Assembly (NCBI GenBank): GCA_050633305.1
Contig: JBOEGF010000013.1
Location: 250,588-314,587, forward strand
Source: Nannocystales bacterium
GTDB lineage: Bacteria; Myxococcota_A; Polyangia; Nannocystales; Nannocystaceae
Direction of reading: 5' to 3'
DNA: 64,000 nucleotides
Made by a program: the position numbers and the translations under genes. The notes below the pieces were generated by a model. That model saw nothing but the letters and a program-made list of their open reading frames with translations, ran no database searches and was not told the DNA's origin. Shown in pieces: positions 23,081 through 40,460 of the stretch (the stretch's first letter is position 1; each line of letters opens with the position of its first letter).

Positions 23081-24526
23081 ATGCCTACGCGGGTGTCCGA
23101 CGTCGCTCCTTCGGAAACACCTTCCATCTTTCGCCGTGTCGTCGGCTTCGCAACGCCGGTCGCCTTCGGCGTCGTGGCGTTTGTGATGATGCAGCGAGCA
23201 CGAGAGGAGCCGCCACGGCGCCCGCCTTCGGAGCAGGGCAAGGCCGTCCGAACCGCCGGGGTGATCGAGGCTGAGGCCATCCCTCGCGCGGTTGGCTATG
23301 GCGTGGTCCGCTCCTCCCGAGAATGGAGCCTTGTGGCCGAGGTGTCCGGTCGTGTTGTCGAGCTCAATGACAAGCTCGAGGACGGCCGCATCATTCGCGA
23401 AGGGGAGCGACTCATCAAGATCGATCCGGCAGGCTTCGAGCTGAGCGCTTCGCAGCAAAAGGCCACGGTCAGCAATGTAAAGGCACAACTCAGCGAACTC
23501 GCCGTTCGGGAGAAGAACACCAAGGCCAGTCTCGCGATCGCCAAGCGGTCTCTCGAGCTGTCGGAGAAGGAGCTCGCGAGGGTCAAGAAGCTCGAGAGCA
23601 GCGGCACAGCTTCGTCTTCGGAAGTCGATTCGGCCGAAGTCTCGGTGCTCACGCAACGTCAGTCGGTCCAGTCGTACAAGTCGACGCTCGCTCAGATCCC
23701 GGCCCAGCGCCGCGCCTACAAAGCCCAGATCTCGCAGTACGAAGCCGGGGTGAAGACAGCCGAGCTCGACGTCGCACGGACCGAGATCTTCGCGCCATTC
23801 GATGTCCGCATCCGCTCCGCGGACGTCGAGCTCAGCGAGCTGGTCACCGTGGGCGCCAAACTTGCCGAAGGAGACGGCATCGCGCTTGCCGAGGTCCCTG
23901 CCCAGTTCTCGATCGGCTCACTGATGCCCCTCATCGCGCCGCCCAAGGATGTGGACGAGCCTCCCGCAGCAGCCGAGGACACACCCGAGACACCTTCGGA
24001 TGAGGCGCTCTCTGCCCGTGCCCTCGCCCGTCGGTCGGCGCAGGCCGGACTCAAGGCCACCGTCACGTTGGAGAGCGGGGCCGTGGTGACGAGCTGGGAG
24101 GCGGCGTTCGACCGCTTTGCCAATGTCGAGAGCGCCACCCGAACCGTCTCGGTCGTGGTCGCTGTCGATGACCCCTTCGGCAAGGCGTCCCGCGGCCGAC
24201 GGCCACCGCTGGTCTCGGGAATGTACGTGGAGGTCGAACTCGAGGGCTTACCCCGCCCCGGCTGTCTCGCGGTGCCCCGCGGCGCGCTGCGGTCAGACAC
24301 GCTGCACGTTGTCGATGCCCAACAACGGCTCGCCATTCGCCCCGTCGAGGTCGCCTTCGTCCAGGAGACCTACGCCTGTATCGACAGCGGCGTCAAAGCC
24401 GGTGACCAAGTCGTGCTCACGGATGTGGTCCCCGCAATCGAAGGAACCCTCCTCGAGCCGCGGGTGGATGAGCGCGCTGTGGCCCAACTGGCCGAGGCCG
24501 TCGACGGAGAGGCCCAAGCCCAATGA
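23081..24526 (+). CDS. RND efflux periplasmic adaptor (MFP)
   Basis: N-terminal TM, AEVSGRVV, coiled hairpin, TEIFAPFD, GMYVEVEL, VPRGAL. Confidence 0.93.
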   Translation: MPTRVSDVAPSETPSIFRRVVGFATPVAFGVVAFVMMQRAREEPPRRPPSEQGKAVRTAGVIEAEAIPRAVGYGVVRSSREWSLVAEVSGRVVELNDKLEDGRIIREGERLIKIDPAGFELSASQQKATVSNVKAQLSELAVREKNTKASLAIAKRSLELSEKELARVKKLESSGTASSSEVDSAEVSVLTQRQSVQSYKSTLAQIPAQRRAYKAQISQYEAGVKTAELDVARTEIFAPFDVRIRSADVELSELVTVGAKLAEGDGIALAEVPAQFSIGSLMPLIAPPKDVDEPPAAAEDTPETPSDEALSARALARRSAQAGLKATVTLESGAVVTSWEAAFDRFANVESATRTVSVVVAVDDPFGKASRGRRPPLVSGMYVEVELEGLPRPGCLAVPRGALRSDTLHVVDAQQRLAIRPVEVAFVQETYACIDSGVKAGDQVVLTDVVPAIEGTLLEPRVDERAVAQLAEAVDGEAQAQ

Positions 24527-27500
24527 TCGGCTACCTCGCTCGGCACCCGACCGCCGCCAACCTCCTGATGATCACCCTGCTCCTGCTCGGTGTTCTAGGG
24601 CTCACCTCACTCAAACGAGAGACCTTTCCCGAGTTCACCCCCTCGGTGGTCACCATCACCGTCGCCTACCCCGGCGCGTCCGCCGAGGATGTCGACGAGG
24701 CCATCGTGGCGCGGGTCGAAGACGCGGTCGACGGCATCGAGTACCTCGACCGAATGACCTCCAAGGCCCGCCAAGGTGTGGGCGTGGTGACGCTGGAGAT
24801 GGAAGACGGCGGAGCGCTGGACGCGTTCAAGTCCGACATCGACAGCGCTGTCGATGCGATCAACGACTTCCCCAACGAAGCCGAGGACCCCGTGGTCGCC
24901 GAGGTAACCGGCATGAGCGCGGTCGCCTCGATCGCGGTCCGTGGCCCGATGAGCGTCCCCGACCTCGAGCGCTACTGCGAAGAACTCAAGGACGAACTCC
25001 AACGCTACGAAGAGGTCTCGCAGATCGAGATCGCCGGGTTCTCCACGCCGCAGCTTCAGGTACGGGTCAAGCAATCGGTTGCTTCGTCCTACGGACTGAG
25101 CGTCGGCGATCTCGCTGACCTCATCGCCGCGCAGAGCCTTGACCTCCCGGTCGGCTCGCTCGAGACGCGGGGCGGAGAGATCCTGGTGCGGTTCGCGGAA
25201 CAGCGACGAAGCATCGAGGAGTTCGCCCGACTTCCGGTGGTGGGCAGCGCACTCGGAGGCGAGGTGCCCCTGGGAGACCTCGCAGACATCGAGTACACGT
25301 TCGAGGACGCCGAGGAGCAGACCCTGTTCAACGGCAAGCGTGCCGGCCTTCTGCGGGTGAGCAAGACGTCCAGCCAGGACGCACTCGAGATCTTCTCCGC
25401 GATGGAGGAGTTCGTGGAGCTCAAGTCCGCGACGGCCCCACCGGGCGTCGAGCTTGTCATCACCGACGATGCCGCGACCCCCATCGAGCAGCGACTCGAG
25501 CTGCTGACGAACAACGGCTTTCAGGGGTTGGTGCTCGTCTTCGTCACCCTGTGGCTGTTCTTCAACACCCGCCTGGCCCTGTGGGTGGCCGCCGGCCTGC
25601 CCGTGTCGTTCATGGGCGGCCTGTGGATCATGTCGCTGATCGGCTACACGCTGAACATGATGACCATGATGGCCCTGCTGCTCGCACTGGGGCTGTTGAT
25701 GGACGACGGCATCGTGTTGGCCGACAACATCGCGGCGCACCTGCGGCGCGGCAAGAGCTCCTATCGGGCCGCAATCGACGGCGTCACCGAGGTCTGGCCG
25801 GGCATCGTGTCGTCATTCCTGACGACGGTCTGCGTCTTCACGCCGCTGTCCATGCTCGATGGGCAGATCGGCCGGGTCCTTCTTGTGATTCCCGTCGTAC
25901 TCATCGCCGTCCTCAGCATCAGCCTGATCGAGGCCTTCGGCATCCTGCCCAACCACATCGCGCACTCGTTGCATGGCCGCGACATCGACAAACGCTCTCG
26001 CGCGCGAGCGTGGTTCGACAGTGGCTTCGAGCGCTTCCGGGAACAAATCGTGGGCCGTGCGTCGGACTGGGCGATCCACCACCGCTACATCACCGTCGGA
26101 TCTGCGATCGCGTTCTTCGTCATCTCGATCGGGCTCATGGCGGGCGGCATCCTCAAGTTCGAAGGGTTCCCCGATACCGATGGTGACACCGCCGAGTTCC
26201 GGCTCCGGATGCCCGCCGGAACCCCTCTGGAGGTCACCCAGGCTGAAGTGGCGCGGGTCGTCTCGGGGCTCCAGCAGATCGACGCCGAGTTGACGCCGCA
26301 GCAACCCGAGGCCGCACCGCTCATCGAGAACATCGTCGTTCGGATGAACTACAACCCCGACTCGCCGGACTCGGGGCCACACATCGCGACGGTCAAGGCG
26401 GATCTTCTCAGTGTCGAGGTCCGCAGCACCACCCTCGACCAGCTCAAGACCGCCTGGCGCGAAACCGTGGGGCCGCTGTCCGACGCCACGTCCGCCAGCT
26501 TTGCCAGCGCCGCGATGGGCCCGGGCGGAGCCGCGATCGAGTTGCGGGTTCAGGGCAGCGACCTCGACCGCATGTCGGAAGCCGCGGTGGAGATCGAACG
26601 CTGGCTCGGCGGGTTCGAAGGCGTGTTCGACCTCGGAACCGACCTTCAACCCGGGACCCCGCAGGTGCGGGTGCGCCTGCGCTCGGGTGCCTTGGGCAGC
26701 TCCGCGCAGTCCGTACAAGTCGCGCAGCAGCTCCGCTCCGCGTTCTCCGGCGACCGAGCCCAAGACGTCCGCATCGGCGCGCAGGACTACGAGGTCACGG
26801 TTCAGCTGGCAGATTCGGGTCGCGACACGCTCTCGGACCTCGAGTATTTCGAGCTCCAGCTGGGGGGCGAGCGCGTCCCCCTGGGCACCGTCGCCGACGT
26901 CTCCGCGGACAACACATTTGCCGCGATCGCCCGCGTCAACGGCACGCGCACCGTCACGCTGACCGGTGACATCGATGCAGAGGTCGCGAACTCGGCCGAA
27001 CTCATGCAGCGCTTCAACAACGAGCTGTTGCCTGAACTCGCACAGAAGTACCCCGGGCTCCGGTTCGAGGTCGGAGGCAGCACCGAGGAGTCTGGGAAGA
27101 CCGCCCAATCCATGCTCACCGCGTTCGGCATCGGGCTGTTTGGGGTCTTCTTTCTGTTGAGTTTCCAGTTCCGATCCTACGTCGAACCACTGGTCGTCAT
27201 GCTCGCCATCCCGCTCGCACTGACCGGCGTCATGTGGGGCAACCTGTTCATGGGAGACCCGCTCACCCTGCCGGGCATCCTCGGGTTCATCTCCCTGGCC
27301 GGCGTCGTGGTCAACGACTCCATCTTGCTGATGGTCTTCATCAAGGCCGGGCTTCGCGAGGGGCTCGATCCCACGGCCGCGGCACAAGGAGCCTCTCGGA
27401 GCCGCTTTCGGGCGATCCTGCTGACCTCGGCCACCACGGTCGCAGGACTGGTGCCCCTGATGTTCGAGCGAAGCCAGCAGGCGCAAACACTCATCCCGGT

Positions 27501-27645
27501 GGCCACCAGCATCGTGTTCGGGATGCTCGCTTCGACCGTGCTTCTGCTGCTCGTCTTGCCCGCGATGTACGCAATGCTGGGAGACTTCGGTCTCACCGCC
27601 AAGCCTGGCGCAACCGTAGGCGGCGCCGACGATGAGGAGTCTTGA
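24523..27645 (+). CDS. RND efflux permease (AcrB/AcrD/AcrF family)
   Basis: 1040 aa; AANLLM, YPGASAEDV, GLLMDDGIV, GVVVNDSI, SRFRAILLTS. Confidence 0.96.
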   Translation: MIGYLARHPTAANLLMITLLLLGVLGLTSLKRETFPEFTPSVVTITVAYPGASAEDVDEAIVARVEDAVDGIEYLDRMTSKARQGVGVVTLEMEDGGALDAFKSDIDSAVDAINDFPNEAEDPVVAEVTGMSAVASIAVRGPMSVPDLERYCEELKDELQRYEEVSQIEIAGFSTPQLQVRVKQSVASSYGLSVGDLADLIAAQSLDLPVGSLETRGGEILVRFAEQRRSIEEFARLPVVGSALGGEVPLGDLADIEYTFEDAEEQTLFNGKRAGLLRVSKTSSQDALEIFSAMEEFVELKSATAPPGVELVITDDAATPIEQRLELLTNNGFQGLVLVFVTLWLFFNTRLALWVAAGLPVSFMGGLWIMSLIGYTLNMMTMMALLLALGLLMDDGIVLADNIAAHLRRGKSSYRAAIDGVTEVWPGIVSSFLTTVCVFTPLSMLDGQIGRVLLVIPVVLIAVLSISLIEAFGILPNHIAHSLHGRDIDKRSRARAWFDSGFERFREQIVGRASDWAIHHRYITVGSAIAFFVISIGLMAGGILKFEGFPDTDGDTAEFRLRMPAGTPLEVTQAEVARVVSGLQQIDAELTPQQPEAAPLIENIVVRMNYNPDSPDSGPHIATVKADLLSVEVRSTTLDQLKTAWRETVGPLSDATSASFASAAMGPGGAAIELRVQGSDLDRMSEAAVEIERWLGGFEGVFDLGTDLQPGTPQVRVRLRSGALGSSAQSVQVAQQLRSAFSGDRAQDVRIGAQDYEVTVQLADSGRDTLSDLEYFELQLGGERVPLGTVADVSADNTFAAIARVNGTRTVTLTGDIDAEVANSAELMQRFNNELLPELAQKYPGLRFEVGGSTEESGKTAQSMLTAFGIGLFGVFFLLSFQFRSYVEPLVVMLAIPLALTGVMWGNLFMGDPLTLPGILGFISLAGVVVNDSILLMVFIKAGLREGLDPTAAAQGASRSRFRAILLTSATTVAGLVPLMFERSQQAQTLIPVATSIVFGMLASTVLLLLVLPAMYAMLGDFGLTAKPGATVGGADDEES

Positions 27646-28943
27646 TGAGAAGATGGGCGCGCCCCACGAGGCTCGGCCTAGCGCTGTTGCTCAGCCTCGG
27701 GGCGTGCGGGACCACTGAGGGCCGAGAGCCGCCCCCGAGCGCGGCAAAACCAGATCCCGCGCCCACTCTCGAAGGCACGTGGCGAGCCACCCTGACCTCT
27801 CCAGGCGGCGAGCTCCCATTCGAGCTCCACGTTCATGACCGGGAGGGAACGCTGCAGGCTACGGCGCACAACGGCACCGAGACCGTAGAGTTCACATCCG
27901 TGTCTCTGGGCGGCGACACGGCCGTCCTTCGCATCGACGGATACGATTCCGAAGTCCGTGCCACGCTCAAGGATGATGGGCAGAGCCTCTGGGGCGTGTG
28001 GACAAAGACCACGCCCGATGGTCCGTCTTCGATGCCATTCGCAGCCACCCGCGGGGCGCAACCTCGCTTCTCCAGCGAAACTCCCGCACCGAGCTACGAC
28101 GTCCCAAAATCGGTCGACGGCGAGTGGTCCGTCCGCTTCCGCGAAGAGGACGACAGCACCTTCGTAGGCCATGCGATCCTCACGTCGAGCGACGGAGCAC
28201 TACATGGGACCATCCTGACCGATACGGGTGACTACCGGTACCTCGAGGGACGCTACGCAAACGGTACCGTGGAGCTCTCGTGCTTTGACGGGGGGCATGC
28301 GTTCTTGTTTCGAGCGACGGTTGCCGAGGATGGATCGCTCGAAGGCAACTTCTGGTCCCGCGCGAGCTACCACGCGACGTGGACCGCAACACCGATGAGT
28401 CCGGGTCAGGCCAGCCCGCTCGCGGACCCCTTCACCGCGGTCACCCTGTCGTCTCGAGAGACCGAGGGCCGATTCCGCTTCGCGTTCCCGGACAGCTCAG
28501 GCGCCACCGTGACCGACGAGGACCCTCGTTTTCGCGACAAGGTGGTCCTCATCGACATCTTCGGAACCTGGTGCCCCAACTGCAACGATTACGCGCCGGT
28601 CCTCGCCCGCTGGCATGACACCTATGGCCCCCGTGGACTCGAGATCGTCGGCCTCGCCTTCGAGTTCACCGGGGACGTCAAGCGCGACCGAGCCCAGCTT
28701 GCGACCTACGCCCAAACCCACGGCATCACCTTCCCCCTACTGCTCGCCGGTACCAGCGACAAAGGAGACGCAGCCGAGCTGCTGCCCTCGATCGACGAAG
28801 TGAAATCGTATCCGACCACCATCCTGGTCGGACGGGACGGCCGCGTGCACAAGATCCACAGCGGCTTCGCCGGACCGGCGACAGGGAAACACCACGAGCG
28901 ACTCCTCAACACACTCCAGACGGAGATCGAGTCCCTGCTGTAG
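27642..28943 (+). CDS. TlpA-family thiol-disulfide oxidoreductase lipoprotein with N-terminal beta domains
   Basis: Lipobox LGAC; TDTGDYRYLEG; FGTWCPNC; YPTTILVGRDG; overlaps the RND stop. Confidence 0.9.
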   Translation: MMRRWARPTRLGLALLLSLGACGTTEGREPPPSAAKPDPAPTLEGTWRATLTSPGGELPFELHVHDREGTLQATAHNGTETVEFTSVSLGGDTAVLRIDGYDSEVRATLKDDGQSLWGVWTKTTPDGPSSMPFAATRGAQPRFSSETPAPSYDVPKSVDGEWSVRFREEDDSTFVGHAILTSSDGALHGTILTDTGDYRYLEGRYANGTVELSCFDGGHAFLFRATVAEDGSLEGNFWSRASYHATWTATPMSPGQASPLADPFTAVTLSSRETEGRFRFAFPDSSGATVTDEDPRFRDKVVLIDIFGTWCPNCNDYAPVLARWHDTYGPRGLEIVGLAFEFTGDVKRDRAQLATYAQTHGITFPLLLAGTSDKGDAAELLPSIDEVKSYPTTILVGRDGRVHKIHSGFAGPATGKHHERLLNTLQTEIESLL

Positions 28944-30763: not shown

Positions 30764-30891
30764 GCCCACGCCCGGCACGTCTGTATGCTGCACGCGATGC
30801 GCAGGCGTAGGGTCGTCGGACCTCGATGAGAGCCCGCTGAAGGAGCTCCGCTAGAACCGTGGTCGAAGAAGCAAGAACCGCTGGCCAACCC

Positions 30892-31485
30892 ATGCGAGTC
30901 GCGATCGTCACCCTGGAAGCGTTCAACGAGCTGGACAGCTTCGTCGCCTCCGCGCTCCTGAATCGAGCGCCGGAGGTCCGGGCGTCGATCTGCTGCCCGA
31001 GCGACACGGTGACCTCGATGAACGGCGTGAGCATCACTGCCCAAGCACCGCTCGAGTCGGCGGCAGAGGCAGACGCAGTCCTGATCGGGAGCGGACGGAG
31101 GACCCTAGACTACCTGGAGGACCGCTCGTTCCTGGCGCGGTTGCGGCTCGACCCCACCCGCCAGCTGATCGGTGCGCAGTGCTCAGGCGTGCTGCTGCTT
31201 CACCGCCTCGGCCTCCTCGGAGACACCGCAGCTTCCGACTCCGTGACCACTCCCCGGCTTCAGGAGCGCGGAGTTCACGTCATCCAAGCCCCCCTCCACG
31301 TCGAGGGAAACGTCGCCACCGCGGGAGGATGCCTCGCCTCGCAATACCTCGCCAGCTGGATGCTCGCCCGTATGTGCGGGTGGCCCGAAGCCGCACGCGT
31401 GGTCCACGAGGTCGCTCCGGTCGGCCAAAAGGACGACTACGTCCGGCGCACGGCGGAGGTCGTTACCCCGGCCCTGAGGGCCTGA
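30892..31485 (+). CDS. DJ-1/PfpI family protein
   Basis: FNELD, nucleophile GAQCSG, GNVATAGG. Confidence 0.88.
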   Translation: MRVAIVTLEAFNELDSFVASALLNRAPEVRASICCPSDTVTSMNGVSITAQAPLESAAEADAVLIGSGRRTLDYLEDRSFLARLRLDPTRQLIGAQCSGVLLLHRLGLLGDTAASDSVTTPRLQERGVHVIQAPLHVEGNVATAGGCLASQYLASWMLARMCGWPEAARVVHEVAPVGQKDDYVRRTAEVVTPALRA

Positions 31486-36953: not shown

Positions 36954-37658
36954 CTACTCCGACAGGAAATGTGTCCCGCTCTCCAGCGCCGCGTGGGTCC
37001 GCGAGAGCATCTCGTCGCAGAAGCTCTCGGTTCGGTCGAAGATGCCGTGGACGAGTGCTTCTGCTCGAGGGCGCATCGACTCGGGCAGGACGCAGGAGCG
37101 AATGTCCTCAACCTCGCTGCCGATCGCATGACCGGTCTCTCGCTCGAGGTGGTGCTGTGAGAAGTAGACCAGTCGCTCTCGCTGCGGATGCGAGCTGGCA
37201 GCACGGGCGGTCGCAGAAAGCCACACGTTGCCTTGGGCTTCGAGCGCTTCGATGATCACCAAGCGAAGCTCGGCGCTCGCATCTCGGGCGGCCGCGATGA
37301 CGTAGTGCCCCAGCTCGCGCGCATGCTTGCCCTCGTCGCTCCACAGGAACCGAAGAACATCCGTAAACCGGCATTCTCGGTCGAATCCTAGGACTTTGAG
37401 GTCGTGGAGGAACCAGGCAAAGTGCGTCTGATCCTCCGCCGCATGCTCGTTGATCATTTCCTGTTGCGGACTGTCTGGTTCGTCCTCGTGCAGGAAGTCC
37501 CGGTTGAATTCCCCGAAGGTCAGGACAAAGTGGCTGCCGAACGGCGCATAGGCGAGCCGTTGCTCTGCAGGTACGGTCTCGTCACGAAGAAACCGGATGA
37601 AGGGATGGCGTTCGTAGGCGCTACGCCTGCGCTCGATGATTTCGAAGATCGCCTGCAA
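36954..37658 (-). CDS. AetD-like heme-oxygenase-like diiron oxidase (nitrile-synthase homolog)
   Basis: TTG start after GGGAG. FLRDETV, INEHAAEDQTHFAWFLHDL, GFD, RFLWSD, VIIEALE, HLERETGHAIG match recalled AetD motifs and give a full His/Glu/Asp diiron ligand set. Confidence 0.88.
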   Translation of the reverse strand: MQAIFEIIERRRSAYERHPFIRFLRDETVPAEQRLAYAPFGSHFVLTFGEFNRDFLHEDEPDSPQQEMINEHAAEDQTHFAWFLHDLKVLGFDRECRFTDVLRFLWSDEGKHARELGHYVIAAARDASAELRLVIIEALEAQGNVWLSATARAASSHPQRERLVYFSQHHLERETGHAIGSEVEDIRSCVLPESMRPRAEALVHGIFDRTESFCDEMLSRTHAALESGTHFLSE

Positions 37659-37894
37659 TGAAGTCTCCCGGCCGCGGCCGCACCGATAGATACGGTCGTG
37701 TTCGGATGTGACAGAGAAACTCAAAAAACTCAGACCGGTCGCGGTCGCCCCCAAGCCACAGCGCGCTTGGTGCTCCTGGAGCTCCAACCTCCGAGCAGAA
37801 CTCCGGGCGGGTTCGCCAACCCAGCGGTGGTCTGCGTCCAGCGGCTCAGAGGCCGCCCAGACCGAGGGGTATAGTCGCGCGGTCGTATCGCCTC

Positions 37895-39304
37895 ATGCAT
37901 CGCCGTCCGCTCAGAACTTGCTCCGTGTCCTCATCCCTTCTCGGAGCCGCCCTTCTCGTTGGTTGCGCCGACGACCCGCCGAACTGCCGGCATCGCGTGT
38001 GCGACATCAACGAGGCCTCATGTGCCGAGTTCGTGGCCGAGGTCATCTCGTGCCAGCGCGACGCACCCCTCGCGATCCCCACCGTTCGATTCTCGACGGC
38101 CGCCGAGATCCTCGCCGAGCGCGACCCCGCAACCCAGGAGGAACTCGACTTCGCCCGCGACTACTGGGCGGGAGAAGCTTTGGTGGGTCTGATGCCCGCG
38201 AACTACGACCCTGCCGACGCAGCCTCCGACTCGCTCTCCGGCGTGCTCGCTCAGTACCGCGCAGGGACGGATGAGATCGTCATCATCTCGGACTCCGACA
38301 TCGACGACCCCGAACTGGGGTACCAGGTCCTGGTCCACGAGATGCTCCACGCGCAACAAGATGTGGAGTACGACCTCAGCGCGCTCTTCGACGAATATGC
38401 GACGACGTTCCCACGAAGCCTCGGACTCCGAGCCGCGGTTGAAGGGGAGGCTTCGTTCTACACGACCGTCGCACAGCTCGAACTCGACGACCTGACGGCG
38501 GACCAGGTCGACTGGGAGAGTTATTACTGGGACTGGCAGAACAGCGCGTGGCTGGCCGCCCGCCAAAGTGAGGTGCCCTCCCTCGATGTGATGGGCCTCT
38601 TTCCGTATGCCTTTGGTTCGGAACAGGTCTATCGAGCCTGGACCGCAGGCGGGCTCGAGGAAGTCCGCGACTACGTCCAGCACCCACCCGATTCCGTTCG
38701 ACAAGTCATGGCAGGCTACGCGCAGCGACCTCCGCAGGTGTTCAACTTCGACACCGAACTCAATCCTAGAGCCGTCCCGATTCTGCCTGGCCACACCTAT
38801 CTCAGCGGCGGAGCCCAGGACTCCTGGCTGCTGAACACCATGTTGCAGCGAACTGCGGGAAGTCTGGCCGACTGGTCCCTCGAGGTTGGCAAGATCGAAG
38901 CCGACCACCTCAGTATCTGGCGCGACGACACGACCGGAGACCGTGTCGCGGTATGGCGTCTCGTCGGCGATCGCCTCGCGCTCCGAGACGTGCTGCTCGG
39001 CGACGGCTCGCAATGGGCCGAGACTTCAGCGAACGCGACCACGCATCACATGCGACCGGTCGGAGAGGACTGGATCTTGGTCGCCACCGAAGCTCCCACC
39101 GCGGTCGCCGTCGCCGACTCGATCACCGGCTGGCAGAGCCAAGACGAGGCATTTGAACTCGCGGGCCTCGTCCGAACGTCGGCCCCCGGAGACCTGGTCT
39201 TGCCTGGACCCTGTCACCACCATGCGAGACACGCACCGGCAACAAGCCACTCAGCCGGCGACCAGAACCGCGGTCGACCTGCCCCTGGCGCGGGGTCCGG
39301 TTGA
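37895..39304 (+). CDS. Lipoprotein zinc metallopeptidase-like (HExxH)
   Basis: Lipobox LVGC; VHEMLHAQQD, downstream EGEA, FPYAFG. Confidence 0.8.
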   Translation: MHRRPLRTCSVSSSLLGAALLVGCADDPPNCRHRVCDINEASCAEFVAEVISCQRDAPLAIPTVRFSTAAEILAERDPATQEELDFARDYWAGEALVGLMPANYDPADAASDSLSGVLAQYRAGTDEIVIISDSDIDDPELGYQVLVHEMLHAQQDVEYDLSALFDEYATTFPRSLGLRAAVEGEASFYTTVAQLELDDLTADQVDWESYYWDWQNSAWLAARQSEVPSLDVMGLFPYAFGSEQVYRAWTAGGLEEVRDYVQHPPDSVRQVMAGYAQRPPQVFNFDTELNPRAVPILPGHTYLSGGAQDSWLLNTMLQRTAGSLADWSLEVGKIEADHLSIWRDDTTGDRVAVWRLVGDRLALRDVLLGDGSQWAETSANATTHHMRPVGEDWILVATEAPTAVAVADSITGWQSQDEAFELAGLVRTSAPGDLVLPGPCHHHARHAPATSHSAGDQNRGRPAPGAGSG

Positions 39305-39335
39305 CACGCAGTCGGCGTACATCGATCGTTGTGCG

Positions 39336-40460
39336 GTGAGTCTAGGACCTGGATGGTTCGGCGCTGTTGCGGGGCTTGGTGTGCTCGTGCTGAGCGGTGC
39401 GGCGTGTTTCGTCACCAACCCCGCCGACCCCGAAGAAGAGTCGGACGGAGGGACCGAGCAGCCCAGCAGTTCCAGCAGCGGCAGTTCCGGAGGCGGCCCT
39501 TCGGGGGCGACGTCGTCGACAACCAGCGGCCTTCCCGACGGCGAAGTCACCAGCGGCACAACCAACGCGTGCACTCAGGGCGCGATGTGTACCGCCGTCG
39601 CGCCCGACGAATGGGAGGGGCCGGCGGTGGTGGTGCTCCGCACCCCCGATAGCGATCCATCTTGCCCCTCGGGCACCGACCTCGGCTTCCAGATGACCAC
39701 CGACGTCTCCGCAGATCCGGCGGCCTGCGAATGCTCGTGCGGTCCACCAGAGTCGGTCACCTGCGATGGCAGAGTCCGGATTCACGACGACGACGAGTGC
39801 CCGACCGTCGGCGCGATGGTTGGTGGGGTCGGTGCTACATGCGCTCCTTTTCCTCCCGCATTCTCTGCGACGCACCACTGGAGCCTCGAGACATGGGTGG
39901 ACGCAGGCGGCTGCGAGCCGACGACAGATACGACCTTGCCCGAACCCACGGCTGGAGCGCGGGTCGACGTGTGCGTGGCCGCCCCCGGAGCCGGCGCGTG
40001 CGCTTCGGGCGTCTGCCTGCCTGAGCCTGATGCGGAGGCACGACACTGTATTTGGGCACCTGGCGATCTGCCATGTCCCGACGGTCCCGACGGTCCCGAC
40101 GGTCCCGACGGTCCCGACGGTCCCGACGGTCCCGACGGTCCCGAGTTTTCGGAGAAGTTGCTCGGCAACAACGGCTTCGACGACACGCGGGGGTGCCTCG
40201 ACTGCATGTGCGCCCCCCCTCACGAGTCTTGCCGCGCGACGGCCGAGCTTTTCCCGTCGGAAGACTGCGCAATCGGTGACCAAAGCGGGGTGATCACCTG
40301 GGAAGGCGCGGGCTCCTGCGTGCCCGCGATGGAGGAGGTCGGCTCCGTCCAGCTCGACTTCGACCCAGACCCTCAGGCGGCGTGTGCACCGTCCGAGCCA
40401 CAGCCGGTCGGAGGCCTCGTTCCCCTCGAGCAGACGACCTTCTGTTGTTCACCAACCTAA
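39336..40460 (+). CDS. Cys-rich lipoprotein with (PDG)7 insertion
   Basis: Lipobox GAAC, Ser/Gly linker, CECSC, DDTRGC, ends TTFCC. Start estimated at GTG 39336. Confidence 0.8.
   Translation: MSLGPGWFGAVAGLGVLVLSGAACFVTNPADPEEESDGGTEQPSSSSSGSSGGGPSGATSSTTSGLPDGEVTSGTTNACTQGAMCTAVAPDEWEGPAVVVLRTPDSDPSCPSGTDLGFQMTTDVSADPAACECSCGPPESVTCDGRVRIHDDDECPTVGAMVGGVGATCAPFPPAFSATHHWSLETWVDAGGCEPTTDTTLPEPTAGARVDVCVAAPGAGACASGVCLPEPDAEARHCIWAPGDLPCPDGPDGPDGPDGPDGPDGPDGPEFSEKLLGNNGFDDTRGCLDCMCAPPHESCRATAELFPSEDCAIGDQSGVITWEGAGSCVPAMEEVGSVQLDFDPDPQAACAPSEPQPVGGLVPLEQTTFCCSPT
40075..40144 (+). repeat. Perfect 9-bp tandem repeat (CCCGACGGT)x7 plus partial units
   Basis: Read directly; seven identical units from 40077 to 40139. 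Confidence 0.97.

Follow-up and report, generated by a model that had tools for sequence, protein, structure and literature searches.

A compact four-gene cassette

The window analysed here, a stretch of 64,000 nucleotides from a Nannocystales bacterium, carries four genes on one strand that lie close together as a cassette (Table 1). The first encodes a protein of the AetD/SktA family of heme-oxygenase-like diiron oxidases (HDOs) and is followed, after a 25-nt gap, by two FOXRED2-like flavoprotein genes and a gene for a homologue of AetF, a single-component flavin-dependent halogenase; the last two junctions are 4-nt overlaps. The HDO frame opens at the residue where close homologues also begin, and longer starts (256 and 277 aa) are ruled out by the start positions of these homologues.

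Table 1 Cassette features in the window, and two comparison loci named by their own identifiers
Feature	Coordinates	Strand	Remarks
GGGAG ribosome-binding-like site	37665..37669	minus	6 nt upstream of TTG start; read from sequence
AetD/SktA-family HDO, 234 aa	36954..37658	minus	single open frame; assigned by alignment, model and tree
FOXRED2-like FAD/NAD(P)H flavoprotein 1, 552 aa	35270..36928	minus	begins 25 nt past HDO stop; GAGPAG and GKGNSA motifs
FOXRED2-like flavoprotein 2, 520 aa	33711..35273	minus	42% identical paralogue, long branch; start overlaps preceding stop
AetF-like single-component flavin-dependent halogenase homologue, 694 aa	31630..33714	minus	start overlaps preceding stop
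Tryptophanase/tyrosine phenol-lyase-family + FOXRED2-like pairs	L072:235-3348, L073:281-3555		two Nannocystales genomes

Fold, ligands and family of the HDO

By sequence, AetD of the aet cluster of Aetokthonos hydrillicola (PDB 8TWW, 8JI3) is the only significant solved relative of the HDO (phmmer E 2.5e-41), with ~34% identity and an alignment that runs without gaps across the first 156 residues. The first-pass annotation had read a full ligand set in HAAEDQTH (72-79), IIEALE (135-140) and HLERETGH (170-177), and inspection of the alignment bears this out: D76, H79, E140, H170, E174 and H177 align to the AetD iron ligands D76, H79, E140, H172, E176 and H179 (PMC10654658). The resulting 3-His/3-carboxylate diiron set is complete, lies on core helices 1-3 and is invariant in a 27-sequence alignment. 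The heme-oxygenase-like fold expected by that annotation is also recovered, in that an AlphaFold model built from 27 sequences (pLDDT 89) predicts a seven-helix fold of this type that matches AetD in fold searches with TM 0.88, Z 28 and rmsd 1.8-1.9 A, the next-best HDO being BesC at Z 16. The phmmer score and the model match together argue that the likeness to AetD is not due to chance.

Full-length similarity to AetD and SktA, the HxxxExxH order on helix 3 (H170-E174-H177) and a carboxylate-binding Tyr (Y165, equivalent to AetD Y167) further place the protein in their family; neither the HDO nor the AetF-like protein has a family in Pfam or NCBIfam. Compared pairwise with four orthologues, the HDO gives dN/dS values of 0.06-0.15, at dS close to saturation. 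Judged from sequence and predicted structure, the protein is an intact AetD-family heme-oxygenase-like diiron oxidase, and the fold, full ligand set and purifying selection support an active enzyme. Pocket and gene context, discussed below, indicate that this member of the HDO superfamily and AetD/SktA family is an orthologue of neither AetD nor SktA.

A substrate pocket marked by Trp146

The pocket positions considered are those named in the text of published papers, an incomplete list. F44, F48, I146, Y167, S214, I41 and F221 are substrate contacts of AetD (PMC10654658, PMC11611611), with I146 clamping the indole ring (PMC10654658), and M139, A142 and S214 are residues at which AetD differs from SktA (PMC13108848). 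The HDO keeps F44, F48 and Y165, where F48 provides a hydrophobic residue instead of Glu at the auxiliary helix 2 position, as in substrate-triggered HDOs. It departs from AetD at G41, L139, Q142, W146, T210, F213 and M217, corresponding to I41G, M139L, A142Q, I146W, S214T, L217F and F221M in AetD. SktA, from the skt cluster of Nostoc punctiforme NIES-2108 (PMC11869266), belongs to the same family, has the same ligands and shares G49-E50, N144 and F217, whereas its M146, T142, T139 and F214 are W, Q, L and T in the HDO.

These comparisons divide the pocket changes that the first-pass annotation had proposed. The AetD segments that it cites, FALNFRDLNR and ETAGLVIF, are given correctly, and the HDO has FVLTFGEFNR and EAQGNVWL in their places. 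The second segment is altered as claimed, carrying the clade-specific W146 and Q142. The first, which is 5/10 identical to AetD and 5/10 to SktA, reflects ordinary family variation: F44 and F48 are kept, it differs from AetD solely at positions not named as contacts, G49-E50 is common to Trp-using SktA (sequence from the SktA supplement), and V45 is the commonest residue at its position among 147 aligned family proteins. The accompanying suggestion that the substrate may not be dibromotryptophan is plausible, yet part of its argument drops out with the first segment, which concerns the wrong residues. That suggestion also says little, because AetD turns over plain Trp and 5-Br-Trp (PMC10654658) and has been crystallised with Tyr and with Phe according to PDB titles; the paper behind these two structures was not found in the open-access literature. 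The annotation further overlooked SktA as an equally close model and the conserved cassette, the cassette being more informative.

Among the same 147 proteins, Trp occupies position 146 in 29 of 30 sequences with at least 42% identity and in 7 of 117 below that level. Among these distant sequences Phe is most frequent (39/117), occurring for instance in L007, which adjoins a Trp halogenase, and in L012, which has a Trp prenyltransferase nearby. At position 142, beside the iron site, 26/30 near relatives have Q or M where AetD has A and SktA has T, and position 210 is Met in 14/30. A FastTree phylogeny of 227 domains (midpoint root, with duplicates, matches covering fewer than 150 profile positions, and AetD and SktA themselves omitted) places the HDO in a 39-member clade with support 0.996, separate from the nearest AetD-like sequence, P0045. 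W146 is present in 38 of the 39 members versus 1 of 188 domains outside, and with this support the pocket change is a stable feature of the clade; R173 (39/39) and G110 (33/39) are further markers. W146 together with Q or M at 142 may narrow the substrate site. A crude sum of side-chain volumes over 10 pocket positions gives 1641 A3 for the HDO versus 1604 A3 for AetD and SktA (+37 A3).

The W146 clade is patchily distributed, occurring in 3/71 genomes in the order of the L002 genome, 22 of which carry any family member. A 401-genome sample of the phylum held no further member as close as the cassette clade, nor was the clade traced to any cultured organism. Neither clade nor cassette was found described in the open-access text searched, though the clade may stand unnamed in the similarity-network figure of the SktA paper; passages of PMC11264947, PMC13519999, PMC11725856 and PMC12210266 contain nothing on the clade.

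Conservation and limits of the cassette

All four genes recur in five of six related loci with enough flank (L001, L002, in which they are reordered, L003, L023 and L024). The sixth, L004, keeps three, and the AetF-like gene has no match in its genome. In 8/8 clade loci with sufficient flank, one of them in the window, a flavoprotein gene starts within 160 nt of the HDO, the flanks of L022 and L025 being too short for this count. Of 17 clade proteins on contigs of at least 4 kb, 11 pair by equal longest-contig size with a flavoprotein among the 120 listed, an indirect match by which the basal members P0030 and P0039 likewise pair with a flavoprotein and P0034 with an AetF-like protein. The four cassette genes show dN/dS of 0.06-0.23 over 13 pairs.

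The genes flanking the cassette differ between related loci, and three of them, searched by tblastn, had no match there. On these grounds the RND pump (23081-27645), redoxin (27642-28943) and DJ-1 (30859-31485) genes and the frame at 37895-39304 are not counted as cassette members. A scan of 33 window ORFs revealed no P450, tryptophanase or second halogenase, nor were any noticed at related loci, and PF04820 has no match in the cassette. Both the aet cluster and the cassette include an AetF homologue; in contrast to aet, the cassette has two FOXRED2-like flavoproteins and is without the P450, tryptophanase and second halogenase. A short tandem repeat coding for (PDG)n lies at 40080-40140 of the window, within a Cys-rich frame at 38886-40460.

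The AetF-like halogenase homologue

The AetF-like protein matches AetF (PDB 8CJD-G) with E 1e-34, or 2e-51 by profile. Its K291 corresponds to K258, the catalytic lysine of AetF, and is invariant in 12/12 sequences, while E215 corresponds to E200 and is present in 11/12 (residue roles from PMC10306068); L183 and L196 of AetF are also kept. In contrast, AetF F372 is replaced by T, and S523 probably by Leu, in a weakly aligned stretch (-1.3 bits; profile conditional E 3e-4). In AetF, S523 binds the amine and carboxylate of Trp together with K587, Q500 and D516, and the latter three fall outside the aligned stretches. Unlike AetF, the protein has ~90 extra residues with predicted membrane helices, their hydrophobic segments lying at 546-564 and 591-609.

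Two further homologues were encountered. P0189, a EukProt transcript of Sulcionema specki, shares 47% identity with the AetF-like protein across 96% of its length. Genome G402 contains another AetF-like gene, more distant at 27% identity (L087:6575-8923), and the 15 kb retrieved around it shows no HDO.

FOXRED2-like flavoproteins and their link to HDOs

Both flavoproteins are Pyr_redox_3 proteins. An Atlas model superposes at TM 0.90-0.92 on bacterial proteins of unknown role and on animal FOXRED2, whose clusters give TM 0.90-0.91 over ~530 residues. Animal FOXRED2 is an ER flavoprotein, whereas its cassette relatives are cytoplasmic, duplicated and tied to an HDO. The model of flavoprotein 1 (pLDDT 94) fits most closely on flavin monooxygenases and on Bdr, a disulfide reductase (Z 30-31, rmsd 2.2-3.0). 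Bearing on a possible two-Rossmann FAD/NADP fold in the conformation of class B monooxygenases, 3d1c and 4a9w score Z 31, level with Bdr at Z 30.5, and both fold searches show this tie. Bdr comes first in the Foldseek ranking and ferredoxin-NADP reductases stand high in it, the latter superposing at rmsd 8-9. A redox-active CxxC is absent from flavoprotein 1, and of its Cys residues (138, 148, 289, 303, 310 and 511) only C289 is conserved. Invariant K59 and K244 might conceivably mark the flavoproteins as halogenases, an idea to which the fold searches lend no support, AetF being absent from the matches listed. The literature searched yielded no reaction for any FOXRED2-family member.

Gene fusions join the two protein types in both orders and in different parts of the HDO tree, with the HDO first in P0049, P0298 and L006 (L005 ends at a contig edge) and the flavoprotein first in P0228. 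Outside the clade, HDO and flavoprotein also occur as neighbouring genes in L052 and L085. The latter, L085:4533-8521 of Cylindrospermum sp. NIES-4074, encodes an HDO, a FOXRED2-like flavoprotein and a P450 in a row, and L084 of the same genome holds a remnant HDO start fused to a FOXRED2-like flavoprotein. Overall, a flavoprotein gene is adjacent in 3/48 distinct non-clade loci, which were found by HDO searches and many of which have 1.5 kb of flank, and 9/16 places with FOXRED2-like genes in Nannocystales have no HDO within the stretch fetched. A tryptophanase/tyrosine-phenol-lyase-family gene lies directly upstream of the FOXRED2-like gene in 2/10 non-cassette Nannocystales loci (Table 1). 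Neither lyase reaches the curated cut-off of the tryptophanase or of the tyrosine phenol-lyase equivalog model; their His motif presumably points to tryptophanase. One Nannocystales FOXRED2-like locus adjoins a halogenase-like gene, and two adjoin frames that look NRPS-like by eye. P0216 of Teredinibacter turnerae (WP_018015945.1) groups with the flavoprotein 1 orthologues.

Other architectures in the AetD family

In P0080, P0150, L054 and L063, a tryptophan prenyltransferase-like domain precedes the AetD-family domain within one chain (Pfam Trp_DMAT in P0080 and P0150, the latter from Archangium). Such fusions likely lead to prenylated indole nitriles or aldehydes by means of a single protein. 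Tandem two-domain proteins of 500-560 aa occur in L013, L033, L048, L014, L015, L018, L049, L050 and L052, and the first three have an extra C-terminal domain resembling, by eye, a polyketide-cyclase/START fold. Plasmids also carry family matches below 40% identity, in L088:5001-6503 and 331 other records (266 Escherichia, 36 Piscirickettsia, 22 Salmonella); the L088 protein is a 500-aa hypothetical and possibly a tandem HDO. Cyanobacterial-type members (P0044, P0049, P0063, P0298 and L007-L011) bear short C-terminal LGxxLxxAGL repeats, with large kinase genes alongside in several loci.

Discussion

We tentatively propose, at somewhat less than an even chance, that the cassette removes the side chain from a free aromatic amino acid, most likely Trp, and then carries out ring oxidation and late halogenation, as a functional parallel of skt with unrelated partner enzymes. 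By the known chemistry of the family, the amino acid would bind Fe1 through its amine and carboxylate, with F48 in place of Glu leaving the site open, and this binding would trigger O2 binding at the diiron site. Breakage of the C-alpha/C-beta bond would then give a nitrile or aldehyde, as in AetD, or a methyl-arene and cyanide, as in SktA. The aromatic ring may sit between F44 and W146, the FOXRED2-like proteins could act as class-B-type monooxygenases on the small neutral HDO product, and the AetF-like enzyme might halogenate late, at the membrane. The fit of the flavoprotein model to flavin monooxygenases speaks for the oxidation step, the tie with Bdr against it. That halogenation would come late, on a neutral product, is suggested by the lack of clear counterparts of the residues with which AetF grips its amino acid, and the locus without an AetF-like gene suggests that it would be optional tailoring.

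Several comparisons bear on the choice of Trp. AetD and SktA, both characterised members, act on Trp (PMC10654658, PMC11869266), and SktA yields skatole and cyanide (PMC11869266). The AetD products are a nitrile and a shunt aldehyde. Fusions to Trp prenyltransferases occur elsewhere in the family (P0080, P0150), FOXRED2-like genes stand directly behind a tryptophanase/tyrosine-phenol-lyase-family gene in 2/10 non-cassette Nannocystales loci, and a bulky aromatic residue at 146 appears compatible with Trp contexts, given that Phe is commonest there in distant members, including L007 and L012. The skt inventory likewise comprises an HDO, a halogenase and a flavin monooxygenase (PMC11869266). The partners differ in kind: SktB is of the canonical Trp-halogenase type in contrast to the AetF-like cassette enzyme, and SktC, by its N-terminus as printed, differs from the FOXRED2-type motif.

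The same pathway logic could instead serve a smaller substrate, such as Tyr, Phe, His or a non-aromatic amino acid, with W146 filling part of the indole pocket and the product being, for example, of cresol, benzonitrile or benzaldehyde type. We regard this as possible though unlikely. The indole clamp of AetD has become a Trp fixed in 38/39 clade members, Q or M prevails at 142 in 26/30 near relatives, and AetD structures with Tyr and Phe exist; against this, small residues at 41 and 110 could accommodate a Trp side chain, the volume sum rises by just 37 A3, and family neighbours that name a substrate point to Trp.

Slightly more doubtful, and combinable with a smaller substrate, is a reading in which at least one FOXRED2-like flavoprotein is a dedicated NAD(P)H-dependent reductase that returns the HDO from diferric to diferrous, perhaps gating the product as MboB does for MboA. 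AetD requires re-reduction between its two O2 rounds, and the fusions in both orders, the adjacency in all eight clade loci with sufficient flank and the Foldseek ranks of Bdr and ferredoxin-NADP reductases speak for such a partner. In mangotoxin biosynthesis, MboA is likewise an HDO whose gene accompanies one for an NAD(P)H flavoprotein, and MboAB is described as possibly the first dedicated HDO-redox pair (PMC13185094). MboB is, however, a flavin/Fe2S2 reductase and MboA acts on a tripeptide (PMC13185094), whereas the cassette partners are FOXRED2-like and flavoprotein 1 has only one conserved Cys. The rarity of adjacency outside the clade, the FOXRED2-like genes in Nannocystales without an HDO, and the presence of two diverged copies, in excess of what a reductase role needs, also count against it. 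In the combined form, the W146 clade would add a third reaction to those of the AetD family, acting on an amino acid new to it, with the FOXRED2-like partner as a dedicated flavin-only reductase recharging the diiron site and the pairing fixed several times by gene fusion, a prospect we consider no less doubtful.

Half of the aetokthonotoxin route, in which the AetF-like enzyme brominates Trp and the HDO converts it to bromoindole-3-carbonitrile, seems decidedly improbable. Two of the four genes have their best structurally solved relatives in AetD and AetF, and T210 could stand in for S214, the 7-Br contact. Identity to AetD is only ~34%, however, the clade lies apart from P0045, Met replaces T210 in 14/30 near relatives, AetF F372 and probably S523 are changed, the L004 genome has no AetF-like gene, and the 33 window ORFs scanned include neither P450 nor tryptophanase. 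An inactive or decaying relic, in favour of which nothing was found, is very hard to credit with six ligands invariant in 27 sequences and purifying selection over all 13 pairs.

The divergent reactions of AetD and SktA on nearly the same substrate have been ascribed to second-sphere residues (2026 review, PMC13108848), and a well-supported clade whose ring-clamp position is fixed as Trp offers a direct test of this idea. The cassette and the fusions carry more interest than the pocket segments. The cassette provides a four-protein system for the FOXRED2-like reaction, for HDO re-reduction in the cell and for a self-sufficient halogenase homologue with predicted membrane helices. Were it just another skatole or nitrile route, it would be a useful, ordinary addition; if the reading of a third reaction with a dedicated reductase is true, the cassette would supply the first defined FOXRED2-family reaction and a second class of native HDO redox partner.
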